From contig LFTI01000087.1 of assembly GCA_001513285.1 (NCBI GenBank), forward strand, positions 1 through 60,521: 60,521 nt of DNA, written 5' to 3'. Position numbers and translations under genes: made by a program. The notes beneath the pieces are model-generated. The model worked only from the letters and a program-made list of their open reading frames with translations, had not been told where the DNA came from and ran no database searches. Below are positions 9,080 through 33,730 of the stretch, piece by piece (within the stretch, counting starts at the first letter, position 1; the number at the start of each line of letters is the position of its first letter). Source of the DNA: Rikenellaceae bacterium DTU049 (GTDB lineage: Bacteria; Bacteroidota; Bacteroidia; Bacteroidales; DTU049).

Positions 9080-10087
9080 TTATGTTAGGTTTTCTATTGG
9101 TTTATTTCTAAGCTTAATATATTCGTACCATGCACGCCTATCTGACGCCGCTAAATTTAATATCCTCCCCACATCCTCTATTAATTTATTTAATAAATAC
9201 TTGTGCTTCACTATATACCACATTATATAACTCTGTAAATATTTCGTAGCTACTCCTCTAAACTGCTTGTCTATCCACTTCGCAAACCTTACTGTATGCT
9301 GTCTCACTGTATTTATGTTGTATGTATCATTCTGATCTTTCACTAGTTCTCTTTTTACTGTCTTACTCTTTAAATTCTTTGACCTAAATTTCTTGAATTC
9401 TTTCCTATCTTCTCCACATATAGTGCTACTTGTAGATACTTTTTTTCTTAATATCTTTTCTATTTTCACCTTCTTTATTTTATCAAAGCATATTAGATTG
9501 AATAGCATATTGCCACTTCTGTCTTTCATCGCTAGCACTGCCACATTGTGCTGCTTCTTCTCCTGAGCTATCAAATATTCTTCTTTGCTTTTATATCTTC
9601 TACCTTTTTCTGAATATTTCATCAGCAACTCTTCGAGTTCCATTATCCCAAAAAAGTTAACATTATCATCGAAGCTCCTCAATGCTGTCAATATTCTATG
9701 TCTCCATTCGAAACTTGTCGTTAGATCTATTCCTATTTCTTTAGCACATTGGCGTAAACTTTTTCCTTCGAGCATACAGAGAATGTAGTCCAGCATTAAT
9801 TCTTTTTTATGCAGATTGTAAACAAAAGTACCGGTTGTAACTCGGAAGTTTTTGCCACATTCTTTACATTGATAGAGCTGCTGACCTTGTTGATGACCAT
9901 TCTTTATAATGTTTATGCTCTCACATTTGGGACATTGTGGCGATACACTTTGAGCCTTGAGACCTTGGTAGTCTACTACATCTGCATCTTTTTGTTTTAA
10001 TAGGTAAAAAAGTCCATCGAGGAATGCTAAATGCTCTTGTTTGCCCATAGATAAATGTTCTACTAGATTATCAACTAATTGTTTCAT
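9080..10087 (-). CDS. IS1595-family transposase-like protein, copy 1 (catalytic residues degenerate)
   Basis: CPKC..CKEC zinc ribbon, HTH ending WRHRIL, FRGVATKYLQSYIMWY signature; ELEE in place of E.DE. Confidence 0.85.
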   Translation of the reverse strand: MKQLVDNLVEHLSMGKQEHLAFLDGLFYLLKQKDADVVDYQGLKAQSVSPQCPKCESINIIKNGHQQGQQLYQCKECGKNFRVTTGTFVYNLHKKELMLDYILCMLEGKSLRQCAKEIGIDLTTSFEWRHRILTALRSFDDNVNFFGIMELEELLMKYSEKGRRYKSKEEYLIAQEKKQHNVAVLAMKDRSGNMLFNLICFDKIKKVKIEKILRKKVSTSSTICGEDRKEFKKFRSKNLKSKTVKRELVKDQNDTYNINTVRQHTVRFAKWIDKQFRGVATKYLQSYIMWYIVKHKYLLNKLIEDVGRILNLAASDRRAWYEYIKLRNKPIENLT

Positions 10088-10223
10088 AATTAATTATTTT
10101 TTATAAAATTAATTAAAATTTGGAAATGTAATCAAATAAATTTCCAAACAATAATTATTTTATTTCTCCCACATTTTCAATCAATACATAATTTTTTAAT
10201 ATTTTTGTAAAAAATTTTTGCCT

Positions 10224-10670
10224 ATGCTTTTTAGAAAACAAAACATCGTATTGTTCATCGCCTGGATTTTATTGATTTTATTATTCTTTATACCCTTTAT
10301 TAAGTTATTAACTCCTAGTTTTATACCTCTTTCTATTTATGATACTAATTCTCCGGTTCATCCTATCGGCTGGTTATATACTTTGATGGTAGTTCATATT
10401 TTAATGGTTTTATTAATACCCATTATTATTTATTATGTTAGAAATTTGGTAGTTCAATTAAGGTTAAATGCTGTAGCTTTTTTCCTTAATGTACTTTTAT
10501 TACTTGGTATGTTGCTAATACCTGATATCTGGGCTAAAAACGGTTTTTTATTTAAATATGATACTTTTGGTGTTTTAATACCTATTATTTCTTTTATAAT
10601 GATAATTTTAGCAAATAAATATATTAGATCAGATATTCAAAAAATTAGCAGTGCTAGTAGGTTAAGATAA
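10224..10670 (+). CDS. DUF4293-like membrane protein
   Basis: Four hydrophobic segments; Q.RL motif; C-terminal ANKYIRSD....ASRLR; ATG at 10224 preferred over TTG at 10218. Confidence 0.7.
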   Translation: MLFRKQNIVLFIAWILLILLFFIPFIKLLTPSFIPLSIYDTNSPVHPIGWLYTLMVVHILMVLLIPIIIYYVRNLVVQLRLNAVAFFLNVLLLLGMLLIPDIWAKNGFLFKYDTFGVLIPIISFIMIILANKYIRSDIQKISSASRLR

Positions 10671-10701
10671 TTAATAATTTTTTTAAATAAAAAAATTTAT
10701 G

Positions 10702-10709
10702 TATCTTTG
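10702..10709 (+). promoter_or_regulatory. Bacteroidota -7 promoter box for SRP RNA
   Basis: TATCTTTG fits TAnnTTTG, 5 nt upstream of the SRP RNA. Confidence 0.75.
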
Positions 10710-10714
10710 CAATT

Positions 10715-10812
10715 GGGGTAAGTCTTACACAACCAGCTCCTGCGAACTCCCCCAGGTCCGAGAGGAAGCAAGGGTAAGTGGTCGTAGCGGTGTGATGTAA
10801 GGTGCTTACCCC
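10715..10812 (+). ncRNA. ffs: Small bacterial signal recognition particle RNA (4.5S)
   Basis: Long hairpin GGGGTAAG...CTTACCCC with central CCAGGTCC-GAGA-GGAAGCAAGG helix-8 motif, followed by a T-tract. Confidence 0.93.
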
Positions 10813-10842
10813 TTTTTATTGTTTTAAAAATTTTACTCTATT

Positions 10843-11460
10843 ATGAAATTATTTATTAATACAATAAATATCGAAGATGTTAGAATTATTAAAGATTTTG
10901 ATATAATAAGTGGTATTAATATTGATCTATCTGATATAGAAGCTTTAGGTATTAAAGATAATAATCAGATTTTAACTCATTATAATTCTATCTGCAATTT
11001 AATTAAAAAAGAATTATTAGTAAATATTAAAGCTAAAAATTATGAAGATATTTTAAGAGAAGTAGATATTTTAATGTCTATTAATGAACTTATTACTGTA
11101 AAATTGCCTGCTACTACTGATGGAATAAAAGCTATTATTAATTTATCAAAACAAAAAATTAACACTTTATGTGATAGCATTATGTCCTCTTCTCAAGCAA
11201 TTTTAGCTGCTGAGGCAGGTGCTTCTTATATTAATATACCTATTATAAACACCAAGCAATCAGGTATCGATTCTATGCATTTAATTTCTCAGATTGTTAA
11301 TATATATAATGAGCAAGGATATGATACTTTTATTTTAGCTGACCAGATTTCTAGTTCTATAGAGTTATCTCAAATAGCTATTTTAGGTGCTGATGGCCTT
11401 ATCACTAATATGAGCACTTTCCTAACTTTTTTTAAAAATACAATAAACATCATTGATTGA
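10843..11460 (+). CDS. Transaldolase/fructose-6-phosphate aldolase family protein, degenerate active site
   Basis: VKLP Schiff-base lysine, DGIKAI, QAILAAEAGASY and GAD retained; DTA, TTNPS and SPF.GR motifs lost. Confidence 0.8.
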   Translation: MKLFINTINIEDVRIIKDFDIISGINIDLSDIEALGIKDNNQILTHYNSICNLIKKELLVNIKAKNYEDILREVDILMSINELITVKLPATTDGIKAIINLSKQKINTLCDSIMSSSQAILAAEAGASYINIPIINTKQSGIDSMHLISQIVNIYNEQGYDTFILADQISSSIELSQIAILGADGLITNMSTFLTFFKNTINIID

Positions 11461-11511
11461 CATTTCGTTTAAAATATATAACAAATTTGATAATTAATAA
11501 AATAAAAAAAT

Positions 11512-12159
11512 ATGTTATTAAAGATTCATCCAGAAGATCCTCAACAAAGGCAAATTAATAAAATAGTAGAGATACTAAATGGAGGTGGTATTGTGATTAT
11601 TCCTACAGATAGTGTTTATGCTTTTGCTGCTAATCCATTTAATAAATCTGCAGTAGAAAAAATTTCTATGATAAAAAAAATAGATTTCAATAAAGCTACT
11701 TTTTCGTTTTTAGGCTCTAATTTATCTATTCTAAGTGAATATACTAAACCTATTCCTAATGAAATTTTTAGATTAATGAAATCTGTCTTACCAGGTCCAT
11801 ATACATTTATTTTACCTATTAATAATAAAATACCTAAAATTTTAGAAAATCGTAGAAAAACTATTGGAATACGTGTACCAGATAATAAAATTGTTCACGC
11901 CATTGTAGACACTATTGGGCATCCCATAGTTTCTTCTTCTATTAAAGTAAATGAGCAGATAGGCAATGAATATATTTCAGATCCAGAGCTTATCTATGAA
12001 ATGTATATGGATTTAGTAGATGCTGTTATAGATGGAGGTCCAGGTGGTCTCATACCTAGTACTGTGATAGATGCTACTGGTGAAATACCCGTTTTAGTTA
12101 GGGAGGGAGCAGGATCAATTAATTTTTTAGATTTGTTAGATGAAGGAGAAAATATTTAA
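11512..12159 (+). CDS. Sua5/YciO/YrdC family protein (YciO-like)
   Basis: IHPEDPQ.R, PTDSVYA, LPGPYTFIL, RKTIGIRVPD, PSTVID motifs. Confidence 0.9.
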   Translation: MLLKIHPEDPQQRQINKIVEILNGGGIVIIPTDSVYAFAANPFNKSAVEKISMIKKIDFNKATFSFLGSNLSILSEYTKPIPNEIFRLMKSVLPGPYTFILPINNKIPKILENRRKTIGIRVPDNKIVHAIVDTIGHPIVSSSIKVNEQIGNEYISDPELIYEMYMDLVDAVIDGGPGGLIPSTVIDATGEIPVLVREGAGSINFLDLLDEGENI

Positions 12160-12463
12160 CTTTTTTCATTATACGATTAAAAATAAATCCATTGAAAATT
12201 ATTTTAATGTTCTAAATAATGATTCCATTAGAATAGAACGAATTATTTCCTTTGGGCAGCAAAGTCCCCCAGATTTTTGGTATGATCAAGATGAGAATGA
12301 ATGGATAATGTTGCTAAAAGGTAAGGCTAAATTAGAATTTATAGATAGAAAAATTACTCTACAAAAAGGAGATTGCTTACTCATACCTGCTCATGAGAAA
12401 CATAGAGTAGCTTATACTCATAAATACAAACCTACTATTTGGTTAGCAGTTTTTTTTAGATAA
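12140..12463 (+). CDS. Cupin domain protein
   Basis: IERIISFGQ.SP..FWYDQ.E.EW, IPAH.KHRV..T, TIWLAVF. Confidence 0.85.
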   Translation: MKEKIFNFFHYTIKNKSIENYFNVLNNDSIRIERIISFGQQSPPDFWYDQDENEWIMLLKGKAKLEFIDRKITLQKGDCLLIPAHEKHRVAYTHKYKPTIWLAVFFR

Positions 12464-12534
12464 ATCTATCTATAGTATAGTATATAGCTCAATCAAATTA
12501 GATGTAATCAACTAATATACTATATATCAATATC

Positions 12535-14484
12535 TTACTGAAATTTTAGTTTCCACTTGTCTATTTCTATTTTTTTAAAATCTATGCTATCTGGCAGGCT
12601 ATTTATTTCTTTTTTATTTCCTATGATATATACATCATCAGCATTAGAAATTATAGGATTATTAATATAAAATGAATGAGTTTTTACTTTTTCATTTATT
12701 TCATATTTATTTTTTTCTTTACAGAAATAATATGTACAAAAATCATCTATTTTTGACTGAACATTTGGTAAATCTACTGAATCTGGTTTAATAACAAGAT
12801 AATTAAATTTTTGTTGTTCTTTTTGCCCAATTATTGCATATTTATAATTTAATGATTCAAAAGAGGGATTGTATTGAATTCTTTTTATTAACGAAAAATT
12901 ATAGGTTATACCAAAGAGTAAGACAGCAGTTAATAAATATGGAAAAATTTTTATTTCTTTAAAATAAATTTTAATTGTTATCAATATAATTATTATTCCT
13001 ATCATTATTGCTGACAATGGCGTTAGAAAAATATTAGGTATAGTAGAGTAAGGTAAATCAGATATCATTCCGATAAAATTTATAAATATTTTAACTAAGA
13101 ATGAAAATATTATTGCAATAAATTCACCTATTACGGGTATAAACGAGAATATTATTGTAATAAATCCCGCATAAATCAATAAAGAAGCGAATGGTACTGC
13201 CATTAAATTTGCAATTATAAAATAAGTAGGAAATTGATGAAAATAAAATAATGTAAATGGTAATGTGCCTAACTGTGCAGCCATGGTAACTGATAATGAA
13301 CCAATTACCCATTTAAGCCATTTTTTATTCGTTTTGAAAATATTTATTAATGGAGTATAAAAAAAGAATATACCTAATACAGCTGAAAAGGATAACTGAA
13401 AACCTAATGAGTATAATTGCAAAGGATTAACAACTAAAATAATCAATGCTGCCGCTGCTAATGAATTATATTTATTCACATTTCTATTAATTACTGGACC
13501 TATTTGTAATAGTGTAAGCATAATGGCAGCCCTTACTACTGATGGCATAGCTCCAACCATAAATGTATATAGCCATAATGTTATTATTGCTAATGGTATT
13601 GTAATTTTATTTTTATATTTTAATGGAATTATTAATGAAAATAGTAAATATATTGCTCCATAAATTATAGCTACATGAAGTCCAGAAATAGCTAAAATAT
13701 GTACAACTCCTGCTTGTTGAAAGTCTTTTATTATATCTGCATCCATTACATCTTTATATCCTAATAGCATTGCACTTATTAAGTTAGCAGATGTGTTATC
13801 TTGAATATTTTCATAAATTAATTTTATTAGTTTATTTCTAAATATTAAAAATTTCTCTAATATATTACTTTTGCGTTCAACAATTTTGAAATCATAATCA
13901 TTTATATAACCGATATGATATATTTGGAGGTTTGCTAGATATTTAGCATAATCAAATTCATATGGGAATCTGATTTCGTTAGGTGATTGTAAAGAGTTTC
14001 TAAATAAAATCGAATGATTTGAACGATTAAAACTATCAAGAGGTAAGTTGAGATATAATAATACTTTACCATTGGTATTAATCCATTGACTATCTATTAG
14101 CATTTTATTGATCTTTACTGTAGCTTTAGTTTTAGTTTGAGAAAAAGACTTTGTATTTAGTATATCTCCATATAGATATGATGCTTTATCAATATAATTT
14201 TCATAGTAATCTACCCTATTCTTTTCATCAATAGAATAACTTCTAAAATATCCTAATGATAATATGGCAATAAATATAGCTATTGATAAAAATTGCGTTG
14301 ATGATATGATGGATTTAGTATAAAAAAGATAAAAACCATAAGAAATAAATAATAGAAAAGTTGTAGTCAATGTTATGAAATAATAAATATTATGATTTGG
14401 CCAAAAATGATATATGCTTATACCTATTATATATAATAATGCTATTCTAACTATTGGTGCTTTTGACCAATTCATAATCATCAA
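12535..14484 (-). CDS. comEC: ComEC/Rec2 family competence membrane protein
   Basis: FDYAKYL, HILAISGLHV, SVVRA, GFQLSF, LFYFHQF motifs. Confidence 0.9.
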   Translation of the reverse strand: MMIMNWSKAPIVRIALLYIIGISIYHFWPNHNIYYFITLTTTFLLFISYGFYLFYTKSIISSTQFLSIAIFIAILSLGYFRSYSIDEKNRVDYYENYIDKASYLYGDILNTKSFSQTKTKATVKINKMLIDSQWINTNGKVLLYLNLPLDSFNRSNHSILFRNSLQSPNEIRFPYEFDYAKYLANLQIYHIGYINDYDFKIVERKSNILEKFLIFRNKLIKLIYENIQDNTSANLISAMLLGYKDVMDADIIKDFQQAGVVHILAISGLHVAIIYGAIYLLFSLIIPLKYKNKITIPLAIITLWLYTFMVGAMPSVVRAAIMLTLLQIGPVINRNVNKYNSLAAAALIILVVNPLQLYSLGFQLSFSAVLGIFFFYTPLINIFKTNKKWLKWVIGSLSVTMAAQLGTLPFTLFYFHQFPTYFIIANLMAVPFASLLIYAGFITIIFSFIPVIGEFIAIIFSFLVKIFINFIGMISDLPYSTIPNIFLTPLSAIMIGIIIILITIKIYFKEIKIFPYLLTAVLLFGITYNFSLIKRIQYNPSFESLNYKYAIIGQKEQQKFNYLVIKPDSVDLPNVQSKIDDFCTYYFCKEKNKYEINEKVKTHSFYINNPIISNADDVYIIGNKKEINSLPDSIDFKKIEIDKWKLKFQ

Positions 14485-19740: not shown

Positions 19741-20950
19741 AAATCAACTATTCATGTACAATAAAAATTTGCTAATTATTACTAATCTATTCCCATATCC
19801 AGAAAATGAAACTCGCGGAATATTTATATCCCGCAGATTAGAATTTATGAAGAATTATGGCATTACATTTGACGTTTATTGTCCTATTCCTAAAGAAGGT
19901 AATAGCTTGAAGGTAGTTAGAAAAATTATTGGAAGTGAAGGAATTAATGTTCATCAACCTTTCTATGAATTTGGTGGTATTAGATACAAATATGTGTTTT
20001 ATGATAAAAATCTCTTTGATGTTTTTTCTAAAAAGGTGCTTAAAAAAAATGAAGAAAAGAAATTATCCAAACAAATTGCAACCAAAATATACAGTAATAA
20101 TAACCTAGATTTTGATATAATTCACGCTCATGGAATGTTTGATCCGCCAGCTGGCTTGGTGGCAAAGCTTTTATCAGATAAATTGAATATTCCATATGTT
20201 GTTACTTGCCATGGTAGCGATATAAATTTAAGAATGCCAAACAACAAAGAATTATACAATGATGTTTTAGAAAATGCTGCCAAAGTAATTTTTGTAAGTA
20301 ATGCGTTATTGAATAAGGCAAAATCTTATAGCTATTCAGGAAGTAATTCAGTTGTAATTCCTAACGGAATAGAACCAGATTTATTCAAACCTTTAGATAG
20401 AGAAAAGATAAAAAGAGAGTTAGGACTGAATAAAAAAGTGGTGGGTTATGTTGGGGGATTAAAACCTATCAAAAGGGCAGATAAATTTCATGAAATATTT
20501 GAAACTATAGCTTCAACCCAAGAAGTTGAATTTTTGGTAGTTGGAGATGGTGAGTTAAGAGAAAAGATTGAAAAAGAATGCAAACAAAGAAAGATAAATG
20601 TAAAATTTGTAGGTAGAGTTCCTAACGATGAGGTTCCATATTATATTAATGCTATGGATGTATTGATATTACCTAGCAGAAATGAGGGATTTGGTACAGT
20701 AGTTATAGAAGCACAATCTTGTGGAGTGCCAGTAGTAGGTAGTGATAATGGTGGCATACCAGAAGCTATAGGCGATGGTGGGATTGTTGTCAAAGAAGGT
20801 GATTATTTTGAAAAAAGATTCTCTGAAGCTGTAATAGAATTATTAGGCAATCCAAAAGATAGAGATATACTTAGACAAAGATCTTTAAGTTTTTCATGGG
20901 AAAATATTGTTAACAAGGAATTAGAGATATATGAAAATTTAATTAAATAA
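19718..20950 (+). CDS. Glycosyltransferase family 4 (GT-B); start uncertain
   Basis: HAH, HGSDI, IPNG, EGFGTVVIEAQSCGVPVVGSDNGGIPE. Confidence 0.88.
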   Translation: MLHFVMNKNQLFMYNKNLLIITNLFPYPENETRGIFISRRLEFMKNYGITFDVYCPIPKEGNSLKVVRKIIGSEGINVHQPFYEFGGIRYKYVFYDKNLFDVFSKKVLKKNEEKKLSKQIATKIYSNNNLDFDIIHAHGMFDPPAGLVAKLLSDKLNIPYVVTCHGSDINLRMPNNKELYNDVLENAAKVIFVSNALLNKAKSYSYSGSNSVVIPNGIEPDLFKPLDREKIKRELGLNKKVVGYVGGLKPIKRADKFHEIFETIASTQEVEFLVVGDGELREKIEKECKQRKINVKFVGRVPNDEVPYYINAMDVLILPSRNEGFGTVVIEAQSCGVPVVGSDNGGIPEAIGDGGIVVKEGDYFEKRFSEAVIELLGNPKDRDILRQRSLSFSWENIVNKELEIYENLIK

Positions 20951-20975
20951 TTTTTTATTATTAAAAATAAATTAT

Positions 20976-20983
20976 TAATTTTG
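20976..20983 (+). promoter_or_regulatory. -7 promoter box for the tRNA pair
   Basis: TAATTTTG 15 nt upstream of tRNA-Pro. Confidence 0.6.
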
Positions 20984-20998
20984 CAAACGAAAAATAAA

Positions 20999-21073
20999 CG
21001 GGGCATAGCGTAGTCCGGTTATCGCGCCTGCTTTGGGAGCAGGAGGTCGCAGGTTCGAATCCTGCTGCCCCGA
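20999..21073 (+). tRNA. tRNA-Pro(TGG)
   Basis: Acceptor CGGGGCA/TGCCCCG, anticodon arm CCTGC-TTTGGGA-GCAGG, GGTTCGAATCC T-arm; CCA not encoded. Confidence 0.97.
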
Positions 21074-21091
21074 TTTATATTTTACTTCTAA

Positions 21092-21165
21092 GGTCTCGTA
21101 GCTCAGCTGGATAGAGCGGCAGCCTTCTAAGCTGCGGGTCGTGGGTTCGAATCCCGCCGGGATCA
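21092..21165 (+). tRNA. tRNA-Arg(TCT)
   Basis: Acceptor GGTCTCG/CGGGATC, anticodon arm GCAGC-CTTCTAA-GCTGC, GGTTCGAATCC T-arm. Confidence 0.97.
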
Positions 21166-21171
21166 CAAGCA

Positions 21172-21834
21172 ATGAAAAAAATTTACCTTTTTTTATTTTT
21201 CAATTTTTTAATATTCAATCTAATAGCTCAAAATTTTATTGGCATAGCTAATGTAGGTTTTAATATTTCGCAAGTTGATGGAGATGAGATTTATGGATTT
21301 AGAAAATTTGGAGCTAATGTAGGTCCTAGCGTTATGTACTCTTTTGGCAAAAATAACCAATGGCAAATAATTTTGGAAACTAATTTTAGCCAAAAAGGTT
21401 CTTATCAGAAATATCCCAATACATACGTAGATACTATGAAATTGCCATACTATAACTTAAGATTAAATTATGTAGAAATACCATTTCTTATATTATATAA
21501 TGATAAAAATTTAATCAGCTTTGGTGGTGGTTTTAGCTATGGTAGACTAACAAATGCCAAAGAATATGAATATGGTAATTTGATTAATTATAATACACTA
21601 CGAGGACCTTATGATGCTAATGATTTTGAAATTATTGCAGACGTACGTTTTAGAATATACCAAAAGCTATATGGTAATATTAGATATTCATATAGTATAA
21701 GCAAAATAAGAACTAGAAGTTATGATAATGGAGTAAACAGGTGGACGAGGGACCAATATAATAATGTAATATCAATAAGGTTTTTGTGGTATTTCAATCA
21801 GAAAATAGAAGATAAGCCGTCAAATAAAAAATAG
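21172..21834 (+). CDS. Outer-membrane beta-barrel (porin/PorT-like family) protein
   Basis: Signal peptide; G.N.SQVDGD...GF.K.G; SQKGS; LNYVEIP. Confidence 0.75.
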   Translation: MKKIYLFLFFNFLIFNLIAQNFIGIANVGFNISQVDGDEIYGFRKFGANVGPSVMYSFGKNNQWQIILETNFSQKGSYQKYPNTYVDTMKLPYYNLRLNYVEIPFLILYNDKNLISFGGGFSYGRLTNAKEYEYGNLINYNTLRGPYDANDFEIIADVRFRIYQKLYGNIRYSYSISKIRTRSYDNGVNRWTRDQYNNVISIRFLWYFNQKIEDKPSNKK

Positions 21835-21878
21835 TAAATTATTCAAATGTGTTAAGAGGGAAAGTAAACATGTTAATA

Positions 21879-22954
21879 TGTTATACTTTAAATATTTTAT
21901 TATTTTAATAAATTTTATTAATTTTGTACAAATTTTATAATTATGAAAGAATTATTAGAAAACATCGATAAATACTTGGCTCTACCTAAGGATCACAAGC
22001 GTGATTTCCTGGATGAGCTATATCAATATCTCGTTAATCACAATGCTACAGCTGTAGATTATCAAAAAGTAAAAATTCAATCTACCGCAGCCATATGTCC
22101 AGACTGCAAAAGCGAAAATGTCATAAAAGCGGGGAAAAGAAATGGCAGACAAGTTTATAAATGCAAAACATGCGGTTATCAATTCCGTGAAACTGCCCGC
22201 ACCTTTGTCTATCGTATGAGAAAATATCCATTAATGCTCAATTATATGAGATGTATGCTAGAAGGTAAAAGTCTGCGTGCTTGTGCTGATGAGGTCGGTA
22301 TTTGTCTAAAAACAAGCTTCGAATGGCGACACAAAATATTAGCTGCAATAAGAGCATTAGAAGGTGGTATAAGCTTCTCTGGTATAGTGGAAACTGATGA
22401 ACTGCTAATGAATTATTCAGAAAAAGGTAGAAAATTTAAAAGCAAAGAAGAATATCGACGAGCTAAAAAGAAAAAACATCCCAAAGTAGCAGTATTAGTA
22501 GTTACAGACAGAGAAGGCAATTTACTTTTCAAACAAGTTGGAGAGAAAAAAGTAAAAAATGAGCAATTGAGAGATGAACTCAAAAATAGATTGTCAGAAA
22601 ACAATCTGATATGTGTGAAGCCAAAGAAAGAGTTTAGAAAAGCAGTTAAGAGTTTACAAAGTAAAAAGGTCATAGTAAACAAAAGACAAATTAAACGAGG
22701 GATATATAGTGTAAAGATAGTAGAAAGCAAAATAAGTGATTTCAAGATGTGGTTGAGTAGATTTCATGGAGTAGCTACGAAGTATTTGCAAAGCTACTTG
22801 ATGTGGTTTGTGATAGTGAATAAGTACTTAAAAGAGTTGATAGAATCTGACATTGGCAGATTACTAAACCTGTCATCTCACGACAGATGGGCGTGGGACA
22901 AATATAGAGAGATAGTCAGTCAAAGATATGATTAACATATTGTAAAGTATAACA
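21879..22954 (+). mobile_element. IS1595-like element copy 2 bounded by inverted repeats
   Basis: TGTTATACTTTA (21879-21890) / TAAAGTATAACA (22943-22954), a perfect 12-bp inverted pair enclosing the transposase-like ORF; no TSD recognised. Confidence 0.6.
21943..22935 (+). CDS. IS1595-family transposase-like protein, copy 2
   Basis: CPDC..CKTC, WRHKIL, GIVETDE, RFHGVATKYLQSYLMWF; second Asp absent (ICVKP); -7 box TAATTTTG at 21919-21926. Confidence 0.85.
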   Translation: MKELLENIDKYLALPKDHKRDFLDELYQYLVNHNATAVDYQKVKIQSTAAICPDCKSENVIKAGKRNGRQVYKCKTCGYQFRETARTFVYRMRKYPLMLNYMRCMLEGKSLRACADEVGICLKTSFEWRHKILAAIRALEGGISFSGIVETDELLMNYSEKGRKFKSKEEYRRAKKKKHPKVAVLVVTDREGNLLFKQVGEKKVKNEQLRDELKNRLSENNLICVKPKKEFRKAVKSLQSKKVIVNKRQIKRGIYSVKIVESKISDFKMWLSRFHGVATKYLQSYLMWFVIVNKYLKELIESDIGRLLNLSSHDRWAWDKYREIVSQRYD

Positions 22955-23108
22955 AAAATTTGATACTTCATAACCCCTCCCTCTCCTTTCTTCTCTACAT
23001 CCTCCCTATTAAAAATTTTTTGACTTTTTAACAATTCTTTCAAATAATGATATTTATTCTATTTGCTTTTTATATAAACTAATATTATTAATTTTGTGAT
23101 ATAATTAT

Positions 23109-24203
23109 TTGATGATGAAAGAAAAAATTTTAGAAGCTTTAAAATCAGTAATTGATCCTGATCTCAAAAAGGATATAGTATCTTTAGGAATGGTTCAAAA
23201 TTTGGAAATCAATGGTAGTAAAGTTAGTTTTTCTATAGTTTTAACTACTCCTGCGTGTCCATTAAAAGAAATGTTTAAAGATCAAGCCATTAATGCAGTT
23301 AAGTCTGTAATGCCAAATGCAGATATTGATGTTAAGATTACTTCTAATACTACTACGGCTAGGGCTCATTCAATTATGGGAAATATTAAAAATATTGTAG
23401 CTGTAGTTTCAGGCAAAGGTGGCGTTGGCAAATCTACTATTGCAACTAATTTAGCTGTAGGTTTAGCTCTTAGAGGTGCTAAAGTTGGGTTTATTGATGC
23501 TGATATTCACGGTCCTAGTGCTCCTTTAATGTTTGGCTTGGAGAATGCTCAACCTGAAGTGGTTGAAAACAATGGTAAACAAATTATTACTCCATTAGAA
23601 AAATATGGAGTGAAAATAATGAGTATGGGGTTTTTTATTGATCCAGAAAAAGCCCTTATATGGCGTGGCCCTATGATTGGCTCTGCTTTTAAACAAATTA
23701 TGGAGGATACTAATTGGGGAGAGTTGGATTATCTCATTATTGATACTCCTCCTGGTACAGGAGATATTCATCTGACACTTGTTCAGAATTATAGTCTTAC
23801 TGGTGTTGTCATCGTTACTACTCCTCAAAAAATTGCTATTAATGATGCAGTGAAAGCTATTAATATGTTTAAGGACTCCAATATTAATGTGCCTATTTTA
23901 GGAATTGTAGAAAATATGTCTTATTTCATCCCCCCAGATGCTCCAGATAAGAAGTATAATATTTTCTCTGGACTTGGCTCTATAAATGATATTGCTAAAA
24001 AATTTCATACAAATATTCTTGGACAGATTCCTATCGATCCACAAATATGTGATGAAGCAGATAACGGCCGTCCAGCTATATTAGATGATAATACAGCTTA
24101 TTCTTTAGAGCTTAGAAAAATGGTAGATGCTACTACTCAGGCTATTTCTATTCGTAATGCTACTCTTCCAGAGACTAAAATTGTAGAAATTAAAAATCAA
24201 TAA
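23109..24203 (+). CDS. mrp: Mrp/NBP35 (ApbC) Fe-S cluster carrier ATPase
   Basis: DPDL..DIV, TTPACP, SGKGGVGKST, DADIHGPS, WRGPM, DTPPGTGD, ENMS. Confidence 0.93.
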   Translation: MMMKEKILEALKSVIDPDLKKDIVSLGMVQNLEINGSKVSFSIVLTTPACPLKEMFKDQAINAVKSVMPNADIDVKITSNTTTARAHSIMGNIKNIVAVVSGKGGVGKSTIATNLAVGLALRGAKVGFIDADIHGPSAPLMFGLENAQPEVVENNGKQIITPLEKYGVKIMSMGFFIDPEKALIWRGPMIGSAFKQIMEDTNWGELDYLIIDTPPGTGDIHLTLVQNYSLTGVVIVTTPQKIAINDAVKAINMFKDSNINVPILGIVENMSYFIPPDAPDKKYNIFSGLGSINDIAKKFHTNILGQIPIDPQICDEADNGRPAILDDNTAYSLELRKMVDATTQAISIRNATLPETKIVEIKNQ

Positions 24204-24214
24204 ATTTTAAAATC

Positions 24215-24457
24215 ATGGAATACGAAGAAATTAAAAAAAGAGTCCTTTATCTTCTAGATCAAATGCGTCCATATTTACAAAATGATGGTGGTGATATGGA
24301 ATTCATAGAATTGACAGATGATTTTATTGTAAAATTAAAATTAACTGGTGCTTGTCATTCTTGCCCAATGTCTGTGATTACTATAAAAAATGGAATTGAA
24401 GAAACTCTAAAAAAATATATACCTGAAATCAAGGAAGTTGTAAATGTATTAAGTTAA
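24215..24457 (+). CDS. NifU C-terminal (Nfu) domain protein
   Basis: RPYLQNDGGD, GACHSCPMS. Confidence 0.92.
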   Translation: MEYEEIKKRVLYLLDQMRPYLQNDGGDMEFIELTDDFIVKLKLTGACHSCPMSVITIKNGIEETLKKYIPEIKEVVNVLS

Positions 24458-24489
24458 AAAAAAGTTAATATCAACTAACTTTTTTTAAC
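24453..24489 (+). terminator. AT-rich hairpin after nifU, probable terminator
   Basis: GTTAAAAAAAAGTTA...TAACTTTTTTTAAC near-perfect inverted repeat at the stop codon. Confidence 0.5.
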
Positions 24490-24526
24490 CAAGTACTTTC
24501 ATTTATTAACCTAAAGTGTAATTGTT

Positions 24527-27584: not shown

Positions 27585-27587
27585 GAA

Positions 27588-28607
27588 TTAAATAAGGAAA
27601 GGGAATTTATTAAAATTTTTAAGAGCTACGCTAGTACCTCTAGCTACAGCTAAAAGAGGATCTTCGCCCAACTGCACTTTTAATTTTATTCTAGATGACA
27701 ATCTTTTATCTAAGCCACGAAGTAATGAGCTACCGCCAGTAAGATAAACACCATTTTTCAATATATCTGCAGATAGTTCTGGTGGAGTATTTTCTAATGC
27801 ACTAATTACGGTATCTTCTATTTTAGAAATAGTTTTATCTATAGCATGAGCTATCTCTTCATGGTTAACATGTACTGAGCGAGGTATACCAGTTATTATA
27901 TCTCTACCATTAACTTCTATAGGGTCAGGTGGATTTTCAATATTAGGTATAGCAGCACCAACATCAATTTTAATACGTTCTGCTGTTCTTTCACCGATAC
28001 TGAGATTATGAGCACGTCTCATATAATCTTGTATATCTTCATTGAGTTCAGTACCACCTATGCGAATGCTTTTATTACTAATAATACCACCTAAAGCAAT
28101 AACTGCCACCTCAGTAGTACCACCACCTATGTCTACAATCATATTACCTGTATTGTCTAATACATCTATACCTATACCTAAAGCTGCAGCCATAGGTTCA
28201 TAAATTAATTTTACTTCTTTAGCGCCAGCTTGTTCAGCAGAGTCGTGTACAGCTCTCATTTCTACCTCAGTGATACCACTAGGAATACCTATTACCATAC
28301 GATAACTATAATTAATGATAGTATTTTTCCAAGGTATCATTTTAATAAATTCCCTAATCATTATCTCAGCAGCATAGAAATCTGCTATTACTCCATCTCT
28401 CAATGGGATAATAGTTTTTATATGTTCATGAGTTTTGCCATGCATCATCATAGCTTTTTTGCCAACAGCCATCACAGTATTTGTAGTATTATCTATCGCA
28501 ACGATAGATGGTTCATTTACTACCACTTTATCATTATACATTATCACTGTATTAGCTGTACCTAAGTCTATTGCTATTTCTTTTGTTAAAAAATTAAACA
28601 AAGCCAT
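27588..28607 (-). CDS. mreB: Rod shape-determining protein MreB
   Basis: IAIDLGTANT, PLRDGVIADF, EPMAAA.G, DIGGGTTE, TPPELSAD. Confidence 0.97.
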   Translation of the reverse strand: MALFNFLTKEIAIDLGTANTVIMYNDKVVVNEPSIVAIDNTTNTVMAVGKKAMMMHGKTHEHIKTIIPLRDGVIADFYAAEIMIREFIKMIPWKNTIINYSYRMVIGIPSGITEVEMRAVHDSAEQAGAKEVKLIYEPMAAALGIGIDVLDNTGNMIVDIGGGTTEVAVIALGGIISNKSIRIGGTELNEDIQDYMRRAHNLSIGERTAERIKIDVGAAIPNIENPPDPIEVNGRDIITGIPRSVHVNHEEIAHAIDKTISKIEDTVISALENTPPELSADILKNGVYLTGGSSLLRGLDKRLSSRIKLKVQLGEDPLLAVARGTSVALKNFNKFPFLI

Positions 28608-28623
28608 CTTATTCCTCTATTTT

Positions 28624-30147
28624 TTAATGTTTAAAATTCCTAATATTTGTAAATGACAAAATTAAATCATTTTCTTGACAATAAGATATAATATCTCTAT
28701 CATGTATAGATCCACCAGGCTCTACTATAGCTACGATGCCATTTTTATAAGCTAAATCTACACTATCTGCAAATGGGAAAAATCCATCACTAGCTAATAT
28801 TGCTCCATTGAGGTCGTGACCAAAAATTTTTGCTTTCTCAATTGCTAACTTAACAGCATCTACTCTGCTAGGTTGCCCACATCCCATACCTATCAATTGT
28901 TGATCTTTAACAATAGCAATAGCATTAGATTTTAAATATTTAGCAATGGATACACCAAGCGCCATATCCTCAATCAATTTATCATTTAATTTTTTGTTTT
29001 TAACTATCCATTCCCATTTAGATGTATCAGGGATATAATCATCTCTCTGCTGTACCAAACTACCACCTAAGACACTACGCCACATCCAACTATCAGGTTT
29101 AGCATCTGATATAGAAAGCAAAATTCTATTTTTTTTAATTGATAATTTCTCTATTTGTCCTTCTAAAAATCTGGGAACTATGAGAACTTCAAAAAACAAA
29201 CTATTTAATTTTTCTATAGTTTCATCATCGATAGGTGTATTAAAAGCAAAAATACCACCATAGGCAGATACAGGATCTCCAGCCAAAGTTTTTTCGAAAG
29301 CATCTGCAGGTCTATTGCTCACAGCTACACCACAAGGATTAGTATGTTTAACTACTACACAAGCATTTGGACTCAGTTCATTGACTAGTAACCAAGCACT
29401 ATCTATATCTAAAAAATTATTATATGATAAATCCTTACCATGATGTTTTTGATAGTTCATACTACCATCATGCATATAAAATGCTTGCTGATGAGGATTT
29501 TCGCCATAACGAAGTGGAGTTATTATATTTTTATTTACTATTTCAGTTTCTTTGCCAAAATATGGCTGAGAGAACCACTGAAATATAGCAGCATCATACA
29601 TCGTAGCAATAGCAAAAGCATTTTTGGCTAATAAGCGTCTATCTGACTCTAAACTATTACCATTTTTTATACATTCAAAGAAATGATTGTAATCACTTTT
29701 GTCAGCAGCTACTAGCACATCTTTGAAATTTTTAGCAGCAGCACGTATGAGCGTTATACCTCCGATATCTATTTTTTCGATAATTTCTTCTTCATTAGTA
29801 GCATATTTGCATGTTTCTCTAAAAGGGTAAAGATCTACCAGTACTGCGTCTATTTTTGCTAAATTATATTTGTTTGCTTCTTTTAAATCATTTTCATTAT
29901 CTCGTCTAAGCAATATTCCACCTAATATAGCTGGATGTAGAGTCTTCACTCGTCCATTTAAAAGAGCTGGATAATTAGTTAATTCATCTATTTCTATTAC
30001 ATCAATTCCATATTCATTAAGAAATTTACTAGTTCCACCTGTAGATATAATTTGGCCTCTATAATTTTTCAAAATTTCTATATAAGGTAAAAGCAAGTTT
30101 TTATTATATACTGAAATTAATATAGAATTTATTGGTTTGAGAGACAT
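28624..30147 (-). CDS. purH: Bifunctional AICAR transformylase/IMP cyclohydrolase
   Basis: ISTGGT, GRVKTLHP, IDIGG, LRYGENPHQ, KHTNPCG, SDGFFPF, RNFKH. Confidence 0.97.
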   Translation of the reverse strand: MSLKPINSILISVYNKNLLLPYIEILKNYRGQIISTGGTSKFLNEYGIDVIEIDELTNYPALLNGRVKTLHPAILGGILLRRDNENDLKEANKYNLAKIDAVLVDLYPFRETCKYATNEEEIIEKIDIGGITLIRAAAKNFKDVLVAADKSDYNHFFECIKNGNSLESDRRLLAKNAFAIATMYDAAIFQWFSQPYFGKETEIVNKNIITPLRYGENPHQQAFYMHDGSMNYQKHHGKDLSYNNFLDIDSAWLLVNELSPNACVVVKHTNPCGVAVSNRPADAFEKTLAGDPVSAYGGIFAFNTPIDDETIEKLNSLFFEVLIVPRFLEGQIEKLSIKKNRILLSISDAKPDSWMWRSVLGGSLVQQRDDYIPDTSKWEWIVKNKKLNDKLIEDMALGVSIAKYLKSNAIAIVKDQQLIGMGCGQPSRVDAVKLAIEKAKIFGHDLNGAILASDGFFPFADSVDLAYKNGIVAIVEPGGSIHDRDIISYCQENDLILSFTNIRNFKH

Positions 30148-30280
30148 TTTTTTGCAAAATTAAAAATAAAAATGATATTTTTATTATAATCGAGAAAGAT
30201 TATTTTTTTAATATAAACCATTAATATTTCGCAGAAAAATACTGCAAAACATTAAGTAGAATGAAATTATAATTGTAGCT

Positions 30281-31477
30281 TTACCACCTACTTATGCCTG
30301 CTATTCCACCAAATTCATTATACAATTTATCTTTAATATCAGCTTTTACAAATTCTATTTTAGTAGAATATTCTTCTGCTAAATCTGTTATATATTCTCT
30401 TAAATTAATTTCTGCAGGATTATTACAATGTTTTTTTGCCTCATCTAGGAGACCAAATATTAATCCATCTTCGCACCTATAAGCTTTAGCATCAAAATCC
30501 CAAGGCAAAAGTAAAATTTGTAATCTTCCTATTTGCAGAGCTTCTAAAACATCTGACAAACCAATAATTCCATAGCCCTGATAAATTAAATCGAAATAAT
30601 ATTTTTCTTCATCATATTCTGTTTTTTCGAGCAAAGGAGTGATCTTTTCAAGAATTTCTTTATTAGAAATATTATCAGGATTAGTGAGATTAGAGACATG
30701 TCCGATAATTAATTTTTTAACATCATGGCTAAGGTAATTTTCGAAAAAACTAAGTTGCCAATCAGTACCTATCAAAACAAGTCTACTGATATTTAATTGA
30801 TGAATAGACTTTGCTAACATATCAGCTAATCGCTTATATAGTTTGTGAGACCAATTTTGATATTTAGATTTATATTTGTCTTTAAATTTTTCTCGAGCAT
30901 AGAAATGACGTTCTCCATACAGAGTTTGATCAATTGCAGATAAATGATCTTGAATTTCTTTCCATTCATTACTAGTAATTTCAGCAAAAGTATCCGTTAT
31001 TTCCTGAACTTCATTTAAGAAAATTTGGTAAAATCTCCATTTAGTCCCATAAATATGCAAAATACCTGTTCTATCATACTCATCAAATGCATAATAAATA
31101 GGTAAAAGATAAGGTTTCCCATAATGTACATCTATTTTGCCTAGAGTCAAATCTATAGCAGGCAAATCTATTTGTAATTCAAAGGTTTCGCTCTCCAATT
31201 CATTTTTATCATTTACCCAAGCAAATTTAGCTAAAGTCCTTGTCTCTGGATGTACAAATTGTAAAGAAAGTAAAAAATCTTCTAAAAATGTTCTTCCATT
31301 ATTTAATTTTACATCTAGAGATTTAAAATCTTTTAAAGCATTTTTAATTCTAATGATCCAGGCCATATTCTTATTTTCTTCCTTCGATGGATCAGTATCA
31401 CAATAAACGGATAATACTGGTACTGCTAATGACTCAATTCTTTCTTTAAATGCATTGATTTGTTCCAGGGTTATCAT
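30281..31477 (-). CDS. aeRF1-type (baeRF/VLRF1-annotated, Balon-like) release-factor homologue
   Basis: VLSVY.DTDP, W.IRIKNALK, PYL.P, L.L.G, G..G..DVLEALQ.GR...L, ending GGIAG..RW; no GGQ. Confidence 0.72.
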   Translation of the reverse strand: MITLEQINAFKERIESLAVPVLSVYCDTDPSKEENKNMAWIIRIKNALKDFKSLDVKLNNGRTFLEDFLLSLQFVHPETRTLAKFAWVNDKNELESETFELQIDLPAIDLTLGKIDVHYGKPYLLPIYYAFDEYDRTGILHIYGTKWRFYQIFLNEVQEITDTFAEITSNEWKEIQDHLSAIDQTLYGERHFYAREKFKDKYKSKYQNWSHKLYKRLADMLAKSIHQLNISRLVLIGTDWQLSFFENYLSHDVKKLIIGHVSNLTNPDNISNKEILEKITPLLEKTEYDEEKYYFDLIYQGYGIIGLSDVLEALQIGRLQILLLPWDFDAKAYRCEDGLIFGLLDEAKKHCNNPAEINLREYITDLAEEYSTKIEFVKADIKDKLYNEFGGIAGISRW

Positions 31478-31501
31478 GGCACTACAATTTTATGATTACT
31501 T

Positions 31502-31557
31502 ATATAAAAATTAATACAAAAATTATACAAAAATTATACAAAATTTTTACAAAAAAT
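31502..31557. repeat. Tandem ~11-bp repeat ATACAAAAATT (about 4-5 units) upstream of the aeRF1-like gene
   Basis: Exact units at 31514 and 31525; degenerate units at 31502, 31536 and 31547. Confidence 0.7.
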
Positions 31558-31590
31558 AAATAAATTAATTCAAAGTAAAAACAATTGAGA

Positions 31591-32148
31591 TTAATGATTC
31601 CAGAAAATTTCTGATTTTCCTTTTAATAATAAAATTTTTCTGCCTAATATAAAAAAATAATCGCTTAATCTATTAATATAAGCCATTATTAAATCATAAT
31701 TAGAAATAGATTCATTTTCGGCCAATTCACAAATTTTTCTTTCTGCTCGCCTAACAATAGTTCTAATAATATGACAAAATGACATATCAGGATCACCAAC
31801 TGGTAAAACAAAATTGGTTAATTCACCCAACTCATTAGAATATTGATCAATTTTATATTCTAAAAAAATAACTCTATCATTAGAAAAGACAGGCAATGTA
31901 TCAGTAGAAATTGATTTATTAGCTATATGAGATTCTATAATAAAAATATCATTAATAATAGTAAATAAATCATCACGAATATCAGGTACATCAATTATCT
32001 CATAAAAATATCCAATAAAAGAACATGCTTCATCTAGAGTACCATAAGCTTCTACACGAGGATCATATTTAGGGACATTTTCTCCAGATAATAGTTGAGT
32101 ATATCCTTTATCACCATTTTTTGTATATATTTTTTTAATATTTTTCAT
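31591..32148 (-). CDS. PduO-type cob(I)alamin adenosyltransferase
   Basis: KIYTKNGDKG.T, RVEAYGTLDE, RTIVRRAER, YINRLSDYFF. Confidence 0.93.
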   Translation of the reverse strand: MKNIKKIYTKNGDKGYTQLLSGENVPKYDPRVEAYGTLDEACSFIGYFYEIIDVPDIRDDLFTIINDIFIIESHIANKSISTDTLPVFSNDRVIFLEYKIDQYSNELGELTNFVLPVGDPDMSFCHIIRTIVRRAERKICELAENESISNYDLIMAYINRLSDYFFILGRKILLLKGKSEIFWNH

Positions 32149-32173
32149 ATATCTTGATAATTTTTGAGAAAAT

Positions 32174-32671
32174 TTATGCTAAAGGGACATTAATATGAGC
32201 TCTAGCAATAGCCACACGTTGTCTTTGTCCACCAGACAATTCATTAGGTTTATGATGTATTCTATCCTTCAGACCTACTATTTCGAACATAGGCTCTGCA
32301 CGAGCAATACGATCATTCTTATTAACACCAGCATAAATGAGTGACAACATCACATTTTCTAATGCATTATAACGAGAAAGTAAATAAAAAGTTTGAAAAA
32401 CAAAACCTACCTCTTTATTTCTGATACCAGCTAATTCATCATCACCAAGCCCACTAACTAATTGATTATTAAGATAATACTCTCCGCTCGTAGGAGTATC
32501 AAGACAACCTATAATATTCATTAGAGTAGTTTTTCCCAAACCAGATGACCGAGTGATGACGACAAAATCATTTTTATTAATTTTCAAAATAATACTCTGT
32601 AAGACATTAACAACGACTTGACCGATGGAATAAGTCTTTTGAATATTATTAAGAGAAATGATAGAATCCAT
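32174..32671 (-). pseudogene. Truncated LolD/MacB-type ABC ATP-binding protein
   Basis: Walker A altered (TRSSGLGKTT), LSGGQRQRVAIARA present, ORF ends before Walker B; only 25 nt to the next gene. Confidence 0.8.
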
Positions 32672-32722
32672 AAAAAATTTTAACAAAGATAAAAGAAAGT
32701 TTTATGAAAAAGGATAAAACAT

Positions 32723-33730
32723 TTAAATGTTATGTATTAAATATGTTAATGATATCAAATTACTGTACCGCTCCCATGCACGCCTATCCGACGCCGCCAA
32801 ATTCAGCAACCTCCCCGTATCTTCTATAATCTTCTCCGCCAAATACTTCCCCTTAACTACAAACCACATTATGTAGTTTGTCAAATACTTTGTTGCAACG
32901 CCTCGAAACTTATAATATATCCAGCCAACAAAATCTGTTATCTTCTTATGAATAGTTGATACACTGTATATACCATCTTTCTTCTTTTTCTTAGAAGATA
33001 TCTCTTTGTGTTTGATGTGCTCAGCATTAACTGTTTTGAAAGCTTTTTTATCGCTGCCGCATACCACTGAATTCTCAGATATCCTATATTTTAGAAAATC
33101 TGATATGTGTTCAGCCTGAACTCGTTTATCTTCTAATTTTTTGAACAAAATATTTCCACTTCTATCTGTAGCAGCTAATACTGCTACATTCGTTGGCTTC
33201 TTTTTCTTTAGCTTTTTTAATTCTTTCTTGTCACGCTTCTTTTTGCCTTTTTCGGAATAATTCATTAGTAACTCTTCTAATTCTACTACTCCAAAGAAAT
33301 TAACATTATCTTCAAAAGATTGCAAAGCACTTAAAATTCTATGTCGCCAAAAGAAGCTCGTTTGCAGACAAATACCTACATTTCTGGCACATTCTCTTAA
33401 AGTCATACCTGCAGACATACATTTGATGTATTCGAGCATTTTATCTCTGTGGTGAATGCCATACATAAAAGTACCGGTTGTAACACGGAATTGCCGTCTA
33501 CAATTTTTACACTTATAATTTTGTACTCCATTTTGTAAGCCATTTTTGATTACGTGGCTGCTATTACAATCTGGGCAAAGTATGCCTGTAGACATGGCTT
33601 TTTGCTCTTGATAATCGACAATGTCTTTGCCTTCATTTTTTATTTTATTATATAAATTGTCGTAATACTTGCGTGCTTCTTCTTTAGTGAGGGCAAAGAC
33701 ATCTATTTCTTCTTCAAATATTTTATCCAT
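32723..33730 (-). CDS. IS1595-family transposase-like protein, copy 3 (catalytic residues degenerate)
   Basis: CPDC..CKNC, WRHRIL, ELEE, FRGVATKYLTNYIMWF; start at 33730 (MDKIF) by analogy with copies 1 and 2 (TAATT-ATG, -7 box TATATTTG at 33754-33747). Confidence 0.85.
   Translation of the reverse strand: MDKIFEEEIDVFALTKEEARKYYDNLYNKIKNEGKDIVDYQEQKAMSTGILCPDCNSSHVIKNGLQNGVQNYKCKNCRRQFRVTTGTFMYGIHHRDKMLEYIKCMSAGMTLRECARNVGICLQTSFFWRHRILSALQSFEDNVNFFGVVELEELLMNYSEKGKKKRDKKELKKLKKKKPTNVAVLAATDRSGNILFKKLEDKRVQAEHISDFLKYRISENSVVCGSDKKAFKTVNAEHIKHKEISSKKKKKDGIYSVSTIHKKITDFVGWIYYKFRGVATKYLTNYIMWFVVKGKYLAEKIIEDTGRLLNLAASDRRAWERYSNLISLTYLIHNI

Follow-up and report, generated by a model that had tools for sequence, protein, structure and literature searches.

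A high-copy family of IS1595-type transposase genes without a canonical catalytic triad, at shared loci in a Bacteroidales genus

Insertion sequences (ISs) of the IS1595 family have a single open reading frame (ORF) of ~330 amino acids (aa) that combines a zinc ribbon, a helix-turn-helix and the domain DDE_Tnp_IS1595; they measure ~1.1 kb, end in short terminal inverted repeats and occur in many copies. D-D-N(K) subgroups of this family are reportedly distinguished in ISfinder and by Siguier et al. in 2009, and canonical IS1595 is represented here by 27 relatives in the alignment A4 described below. In bacteria, IS copies are expected to be young and near-identical, or to be decaying. The stretch of DNA analysed here, called the window at its full length of 60,521 nucleotides (nt), is contig LFTI01000087.1 of Rikenellaceae bacterium DTU049 (assembly GCA_001513285.1), and it holds three genes of this type, named copies A, B and C, which belong to a family found throughout the genus. 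This family has the ORF architecture, length, terminal repeats and multiple copies named above, but unlike IS1595 ISs it lacks the catalytic triad and the YH.Q motif, has an added conserved C-terminal tail and shows no detectable target duplications. Its copies are also old, with a mean synonymous divergence (dS) of 0.25–0.74 within subfamilies, are located at the same loci in several species and are under strong purifying selection. By profile, architecture and ends, the elements belong to the IS1595 family, while by the catalytic criterion and the signs of mobility that were tested they do not appear to be functional members of it.

Domesticated or inactive transposases are known from eukaryotes, such as SETMAR, the KP repressor of the P element and the PiggyMac-like proteins of ciliates. 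As in the family described here, these proteins have retained their fold and DNA-binding part but not their catalytic residues, and the frame is under purifying selection; however, they are encoded by single or few genes without element ends, whereas here dozens of genes per genome, each with ends and a promoter, are found in a bacterium. Domestication in the sense of shed ends and low copy number is not what is observed, since the ends are kept in all subfamilies, with one ortholog in a related genome (G002) lacking the left repeat. The nearest bacterial parallel found is Amoebophilus asiaticus, whose small genome is reported to contain exceptionally many transposase genes, with no evidence for recent transposition according to the title of the report (PMC3196728). 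In passages of that report, the elements ISCaa3, ISCaa4 and ISCaa9 are described as carrying DDE motifs, called typical for two of the three, and a HuH motif that is altered in part is given for one element (PMC3196728). The term "purifying" is absent from the text (PMC3196728), whereas in the genus studied here all subfamilies are without the triad, and selection and shared loci were measured. No expansion of triad-less IS1595 elements was found described in the literature at the level of titles and abstract openings.

The window genes, their genomic family and their catalytic positions

The three ORFs of the window and the elements around them are as follows.

9080..10159, minus strand: copy A, IS-like element of subfamily g6, consisting of ORF 9080-10087 (335 aa) and ~72 nt of conserved upstream end
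3' end of copy A, minus strand: CCTAACATAA, overlapping the stop codon of the copy A ORF
21861..22967, plus strand: copy B, IS-like element of subfamily g1, with ORF 21943-22935 (330 aa)
32720..33805, minus strand: copy C, IS-like element of subfamily g3, with ORF 32723-33730 (335 aa)

Copies A, B and C are confirmed as genuine ORFs of the IS1595 family. They score 105–129 bits with the NCBIfam model transpos_IS1595 (NF033547; cut-off 75), 46–51 bits with IS1_IS1595_Zn (NF050000; cut-off 28) and 34–43 bits with the Pfam domain DDE_Tnp_IS1595 (PF12762; cut-off 27). The original prediction, made from the letters of the window, had described three uninterrupted and divergent ORFs of 330–335 aa; its coordinates hold, and the pairwise identity of the three proteins is 46–48%. 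The shared motifs that it had listed are likewise all present in the alignment of A, B and C, namely the CxxC..CxxC zinc ribbon, WRH(R/K)IL of the helix-turn-helix, YSEKG, F(R/H)GVATKYL..Y.MW and the tail LNL..DR.AW. In copy C, the frame is open over 32723-33778 (minus strand), which corresponds to 351 aa, and an internal ATG at 33730 gives the 335-aa form. All 11 copies of subfamily g3, copy C included, begin at an ATG equivalent to 33730, and the longer frame to 33778 has no support from the rest of the family.

The same prediction had presented the genes as three paralogs, a description that gives way to a family of far larger size. The window is contig C44 of the genome designated G000, a Bacteroidales metagenome-assembled genome (MAG) of 1.54 Mb in 104 contigs, with 29.4% G+C and a completeness of 64%. 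A tblastn search with the three proteins located the family at 69 places in G000; 37 of these are full-length copies, all 37 with an open frame, and ~26 contig ends lie inside a copy. Six subfamilies were defined from the 37 full-length copies, and a seventh is present at contig ends only; identity is 79–99% inside subfamilies and 41–63% across them. All 35 matches to PF12762 in G000 belong to this family, and no canonical IS1595 gene was found in this 64% complete bin. In other genomes of the genus, the family is present in six of six, with at least 42–75 matches each, as the scoring covered the best 70 candidates in five of the six and the first-look candidates numbered up to 223. Other genera of the same family and order have 0–8 far weaker matches.

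To place the catalytic positions, a profile search of 1.84 billion representatives was used, which returned 6711 hits, the next best after the family scoring ~226 bits and below. The resulting alignment A4 has 42 rows, composed of six subfamily representatives, P0121 and 35 relatives that are 24–31% identical to copy B. A quick maximum-likelihood tree of A4 divides it into a canonical clade of 27 rows and a clade of 15 rows (support of 95 in the Shimodaira–Hasegawa-like approximate likelihood-ratio test, SH-aLRT), and the latter is made up of the present family (seven rows, SH-aLRT 99) and eight other proteins, with no row having a full D-D-N. The metagenomic proteins P0126, P0127, P0131, P0132, P0140, P0141, P0190 and P0200 resemble the family in that they belong to this 15-row clade and are also triad-less, but they are only 25–31% identical to copy B. 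In the canonical clade, the contexts of the three sites are E.DE, C(S/T)D and YH.Q.(V/I)N, and at each site 26 of the 27 rows keep the D, D or N in question. The corresponding contexts in the subfamilies of G000 are listed below in the order of site 1, site 2 and site 3.

g1, 8 copies, includes copy B: ETDE, CVKPKK, KIVE
g2, 8 copies: EADE, CFKPNE, NVAE
g3, 11 copies, includes copy C: ELEE, CGS(D/N)KK with D in 6/11 and N in 5/11 (copy C has CGSDKK), STIH
g4, 4 copies: ELKQ, CSDDNE, TAIE
g5, 3 copies: EIDE, CSPDNE, SIVK
g6, 3 copies, includes copy A: ELEE, CGEDRK, NTVR
g7, the seventh subfamily, on contig ends of G000 only: EIDE, CTGTKY, AIVK

According to this alignment, none of the seven subfamilies has a full triad, and the earlier statement to that effect for copies A, B and C survives comparison with the 27 canonical relatives, with the qualification that the second-site D of A and C is shifted by one residue. 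At site 1, copies A and C have E and copy B has D. In the column of the canonical site-2 D, two residues after the Cys, copy A has E, copy B has K and copy C has S, and one residue further on there is a D in copies A and C and a P in copy B. The canonical N of site 3 is replaced by R in copy A, E in copy B and H in copy C. In g1, g2 and g7, there is no acidic residue at site 2 or one residue past it, and in g4 the residue at site 1 is K. Similarly, the 12 full-length copies examined from the most distant species of the genus (genome G004) fall into three subfamilies that are triad-less with other residues, namely EMDE/CSSNKK/STVK, EADE/CVKQKK/QVVD and ESDE/CIGNNV/SIIQ. All copies of a subfamily carry the residues of that subfamily at sites 1 and 3, while site 2 varies between D and N inside g3. 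The entropy of the triad columns lies at the 6th percentile in the canonical set and at the 72nd, 99th and 80th percentiles in this family, in which the YH.Q motif before site 3 is also lost. The bit scores of PF12762 fail to separate triad-less from canonical relatives, being 29–47 bits in both. Judged from these residues, catalysis has probably been lost in the family.

The fold was examined on an AlphaFold2 model of copy B built with A4, with a mean predicted local distance difference test score (pLDDT) of 89.5 and a predicted template-modelling score (pTM) of 0.87. The model has the β/α order of an RNase H-like domain, with β1 at residues 148–156 containing site 1, β4 at 222–225 followed by K226-P227, and a helix at 258–274 containing E261; the triad was mapped by sequence alignment and by this order of secondary structure. 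The N-terminal part has strands at 60–82 and helices at 95–142, corresponding to the zinc ribbon and then the helix-turn-helix. The best Foldseek matches of the model are the ISCth4 transposase (E 2.9e-4), the Mos1 transposase and retroviral integrases. All 42 rows of A4 retain the four Cys of the zinc ribbon. Two residues before site 1 stands the invariant E150. Residues 294–321 (KYL..D.GR.LNL..D..AW..Y) and a DYQ motif at 39–41 are conserved in the family and variable in the canonical set. The model and the alignment together indicate that the RNase H fold is kept while the catalytic positions are free to vary. An ortholog of a g2 copy (G006:C46) has an in-frame insertion of nine residues, KKVLVKSPTEKILV, with the look of a local duplication, in a low-confidence linker before the last helix of the catalytic domain.

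Shared loci, selection and probable exchange between copies

Eight loci were compared between species, namely those of copies A, B and C, two g4 copies, one g2 copy, one g3 copy and one g5 copy. All eight are common to at least two other species, with the same insertion beside the same flanking genes, as is usually seen on contigs that extend from flanking sequence into the element. No empty site was found at any of the eight, in that no contig of a sister species joins both flanks without the element. The locus of copy C is shared with genomes G002, G005 and G006. For copy B, both junctions can be aligned base for base between G000 and G005, and the right junction is shared with G002. A deletion of ~90 bp has removed the left repeat from the G002 copy (G002:C68, relative to window 21798-21901), which still has the TAATTTTG box and, as far as it is assembled, the ORF with its start. 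In the most distant species, G004, the genes that flank copy B are on different contigs and no copy stands beside either of them, which indicates that the insertions occurred within the history of the genus.

Selection was estimated as the ratio of non-synonymous to synonymous divergence (dN/dS). Among the copies in G000, the Nei–Gojobori method gives a dN/dS of 0.03–0.09 per subfamily at a mean dS of 0.25–0.74. For copies at the same locus in different species, the values are as follows.

Copy B against G005: dN/dS 0.033; dS of the copy 0.74, of the flanks 0.10–0.13
Copy B against G002: dN/dS 0.04; dS of the copy 0.80, of the flanks 0.27–0.38
Copy A against G002: dN/dS 0.035; dS of the copy 0.50, of the flanks 0.36
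Copy A against G006: dN/dS 0.05–0.06; dS of the copy 0.23–0.38, of the flanks 0.07–0.19
Copy C against G002: dN/dS 0.05–0.09; dS of the copy 0.69 in the C-terminal part, with the N-terminal part near saturation, of the flanks 0.19–0.37
A g2 copy against G006: dN/dS 0.056–0.058; dS of the copy 0.53–0.57, of the flanks 0.13–0.23

In the copy-B pair, 79 of the 98 differences are at third codon positions and they are evenly spread. The dN/dS of flanking genes is mostly 0.06–0.4, with one gene at 0.025, and the family proteins are among the most constrained genes of their neighbourhoods. The checks by which a role under selection was to be judged came out in favour of it: dN/dS, whether among in-genome copies or between same-locus copies of different species, is not near 1, near-identical copies were not found, and the synteny of the tested loci is conserved without empty sites.

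The relationships among copies do not follow the loci. When 24 g1 copies from four genomes are placed in a nucleotide tree, the tree has a star-like shape, and copies fall together with others of their genome or species pair rather than of their locus. For instance, copy B has another copy of G000 as its sister (SH-aLRT 97) instead of the G005 copy from its own locus, and four g1 copies of G002 form a clade of their own (SH-aLRT 100). Because copies cluster by genome and not by locus, the pattern suggests exchange between copies by gene conversion and recombination across repeats, i.e., concerted evolution, part of which could be mimicked by mosaic assembly of repeats in metagenome bins. On one G002 contig (G002:C128, 4400-7000), the left flank of copy A is followed by a full g6 copy and then by the flank of a different g6 copy (G000 C67:40285-42886, 91% identity), a junction that is either a recombination between copies or a chimeric assembly.

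Element ends, promoter boxes and surroundings

Conserved ends extend ~70–85 nt upstream of the ATG and 0–35 nt beyond the stop, depending on the subfamily, and in all subfamilies the conserved region is bounded by short subfamily-specific terminal inverted repeats, whose cores resemble one another in several subfamilies (ATGTTA-type). Of the 37 copies, 33 have a TAnnTTTG box, which we take to be the Bacteroidetes −7 promoter consensus, between −21 and −27; the share among random 70-nt windows is 6.8%. Since subfamily ends, inverted repeats and promoter box are conserved, each copy is an IS-shaped unit of ~1.1 kb with a promoter box, inverted repeats and one gene of 330–335 aa. The end features identified for the copies in the window are given below.

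21879..21890, plus strand: left inverted-repeat core of copy B, TGTTATACTTTA, complementary to the right core at 12 of 12 positions and conserved in the 8 g1 copies, several with substitutions
22943..22954, plus strand: right inverted-repeat core of copy B, TAAAGTATAACA, which pairs with TGTTATACTTTA
21919..21926, plus strand: TAATTTTG box of copy B, 24 nt upstream of the ATG, which fits TAnnTTTG
33747..33754, minus strand: TATATTTG box of copy C, 24 nt upstream of the ATG, of the TAnnTTTG type
22968..23010, plus strand: stretch rich in C/T and poor in G, beginning CCCCTCCCTCTCCTTTCTTCTCT, just past the 3' end of copy B, a local instance of the skewed flanks described below; its upstream counterpart is at window 21855-21872

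A promoter before each of the three genes and an identical start had been predicted. The box is present in copies B and C, and TAATTATG is found in copies A, B and C, although it does not extend to the whole family; the prediction fails for the box of copy A, which has TAATTTTA at window 10104-10111 (−24) instead, while its two closest paralogs have TAnnTTTG. The promoter of copy A may thus be weakened.

The IS1595 family generates target duplications of 8 bp. Five of the 37 copies have a direct match of at least 8 nt across the ends, while shuffled pairings, the control, give 12%, so that there is no signal above it; the target duplications of old insertions could have been lost. The sequences next to the elements are skewed in composition. 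In the 37 G000 copies, the last 20 nt upstream have 28% G and 7% C, and the first 20 nt downstream have 29% C, 2% G and 47% T, compared with 14.6% C and 14.8% G in the genome, and the sequences themselves differ from copy to copy. A transcript that exits the element in either direction would be C-rich and G-poor and might resemble a Rho-utilisation site. The two flanks were also considered as the arms of a single hairpin target, an idea that was rejected because they are not consistently complementary by eye and several copies have only one of them. Several copies of g2 and g3 have a perfect or near-perfect hairpin directly outside their left end, including one with a 16-nt stem at copy C (window 33808-33842). 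These hairpins are homologous in four g3 copies and unrelated in sequence in g2 copies, and they could act as a terminator for the gene upstream or as a favoured target. In addition, what looks by eye like the start of a tRNA gene, GGGGTATTAGCTCAGCTGG, is located ~130 nt downstream of a g5 copy (G000:C76, 14672-15676).

In public databases, proteins of 63–95% identity come from Bacteroidales MAGs and are labelled "IS1595 family transposase". Some public homologs bear the label PF26358; a Pfam scan without PF26358 assigned no family to homolog P0007. Single contigs of 1.3–3 kb with copies of 61–93% identity are found in MAGs assigned to Patescibacteria, Spirochaetota and Caldisericota (L045, L096 and L114); at this length, wrongly binned repeat contigs seem more likely than transfer. 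The part of the window around copy B (20500-24500) was recovered with at least 60% of sampled words in 20 sequencing runs from 13 studies, which are digester, sludge and wastewater metagenomes; six of the 20 runs with the copy-B stretch are metatranscriptomes and were not counted as evidence of transcription. Profiles of anti-phage defence systems gave chance-level matches only (E ≥ 0.0014).

Explanations and biological meaning

The explanation we lean towards is that the copies are immobilised, selected and probably non-catalytic DNA-binding derivatives of IS1595. The proteins would no longer cut and paste DNA; instead, the zinc ribbon and helix-turn-helix would bind the inverted repeats of their own elements in a sequence-specific manner and probably pair the ends, and the dead RNase H domain would serve, together with the new C-terminal tail, as a scaffold for multimerisation. 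Because the repeats adjoin the promoter of the same element, autoregulation would be obtained without extra cost, and the pairing of ends could favour exchange between copies. The copies would then be fixed in place across species, held open by strong selection and evolving in concert, with a benefit that may lie in autoregulation, in insulation of neighbouring genes or in the damping of related active elements. A wider reading, which we put forward only tentatively, is that the genus may have turned an IS family into a high-copy array of dead transposase genes in IS shells, with dozens of copies per genome and possibly more. They would be fixed at orthologous loci, would evolve in concert and would experience purifying selection at least as strong as that on most of the flanking genes compared. 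This would be either a large-scale prokaryotic domestication or a new kind of selfish element whose persistence depends on protein-guided pairing of copies and gene conversion between them instead of on transposition.

Several observations weigh against immobilised and non-catalytic copies. Four subfamilies, g3 (6/11), g4, g5 and g6, have a D three residues after the Cys, and since it is located one residue after the canonical site 2, a register shift of one residue is possible for them; the set of copy C, with E, the shifted D and H, is near the DDH sets that some IS1595 subgroups are said to have. The copies appear to have multiplied after the triad decayed, because the copies of a subfamily share their residues at sites 1 and 3 and the wider clade is triad-less, and a dead transposase does not explain such multiplication. 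The upstream ends are moderately more conserved than four-fold sites (p-distance 0.135–0.30 vs 0.17–0.40), a conservation that would also suit a mobile element. Locus orthologs exceed their flanks 1.4- to 6-fold in synonymous divergence and are therefore not simple static orthologs. Not every copy is intact: in G004, 18 full-length open copies are found among 98 matches, the rest being fragments or pieces at contig ends; several internal remnants are present in G000, of which the one inspected (C83:2560-3373) is a pseudogene; and the G002 ortholog of copy C (G002:C3, ~2030) is frameshifted by a deletion of 1 nt in a T-run at about codon 146. Both halves of this ortholog have a dN/dS of 0.05–0.09, and the deletion is either a recent pseudogene mutation or a homopolymer error. 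Finally, all genomes compared are metagenome bins, and the interiors of repeats could be assembly mosaics. The original interpretation, selection for a non-transposase role, is accordingly upheld in part. The absence of the triad, the low dN/dS, the lack of near-identical copies and the shared loci agree with it. It is only partly supported because the framing as three paralogs was wrong for a family of dozens of copies that retain IS-like ends and a promoter, the copying after decay is left unexplained, and loss of catalysis and DNA binding are deduced from sequence only.

It could be argued that the elements are still autonomous ISs, in which an unorthodox active site, formed by the remaining carboxylates, a shifted D, a His or a Lys that replaces a metal, supports transposition at a low rate, while selection at the level of the element and gene conversion keep the frames open. 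This would account for inverted repeats and promoters that are intact in every subfamily, for the many copies per subfamily with the same triad state and for the full retention of the RNase H fold; the invariant E150 near site 1 and the D at C+3 would supply carboxylates, the insertions did occur within the genus (contigs of the most distant species have no copy-B insertion beside either flank gene), and fragments and a pseudogene are what ordinary IS families also leave. Nevertheless, we regard it as fairly unlikely. Each of the seven subfamilies would have to work with a defective set of its own, in which g4 has K at site 1 and g1, g2 and g7 lack an acid both at site 2 and beside it, and the triad columns are among the least conserved of the family, with site 2 alternating between D and N within one subfamily. 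All eight tested loci are shared with no empty site, no near-identical pair exists (mean dS at least 0.25) and no target duplications were detected; moreover, selection at the level of the element cannot act on a stationary copy, yet dN/dS at the same locus is 0.03–0.09. Multiplication after the loss of the triad can be reconciled with conserved ends if the elements are non-autonomous and were or are moved in trans by a canonical IS1595-type transposase encoded elsewhere or now lost, their own proteins being repressors or immunity factors, dead transposases that sit on the ends and poison the active enzyme. Dominant-negative transposase derivatives are known as regulators, such as the KP protein of the P element and the inhibitor proteins of Tn5, and the similar repeat cores (ATGTTA-type) mean that one enzyme might serve several subfamilies. 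However, no canonical partner was found, since 35 of 35 PF12762 matches in the 64% complete bin belong to the family, matches in other genera are few and weak, and repression by itself would hardly account for selection on every one of dozens of redundant copies, so that mobilisation in trans seems unlikely.

An artefact of metagenome assembly and binning was also considered, in which the interiors of repeats are mosaics of paralogs or strains that inflate synonymous differences and blur orthology. It is consistent with the ~26 contig ends inside copies in G000, with locus orthologs that are as divergent as paralogs and with the G002 contig on which flanks of copy A and of another g6 copy are brought together. 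However, neither open frames nor low dN/dS nor shared flank junctions can result from mosaic assembly; 37 full-length copies are inside contigs with unique flanks, the same picture is obtained in seven independently assembled genomes, and the triad states are derived from the alignment and not from estimates of divergence. As a source of the whole pattern, such an artefact is very improbable.

Dozens of old copies that stay open (dN/dS 0.03–0.09) at the same loci while their catalytic positions drift separate the upkeep of a transposase gene from transposition. If the family proteins are dead DNA binders, as favoured here, they would represent a rare exaptation of transposases in prokaryotes; to our knowledge, transposase exaptation on such a scale is known only from eukaryotes. 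If the proteins still move DNA, the active site of the RNase H fold would tolerate far more than has been assumed. For annotation, the label "IS1595 family transposase" in MAGs of this kind may not denote an active enzyme.

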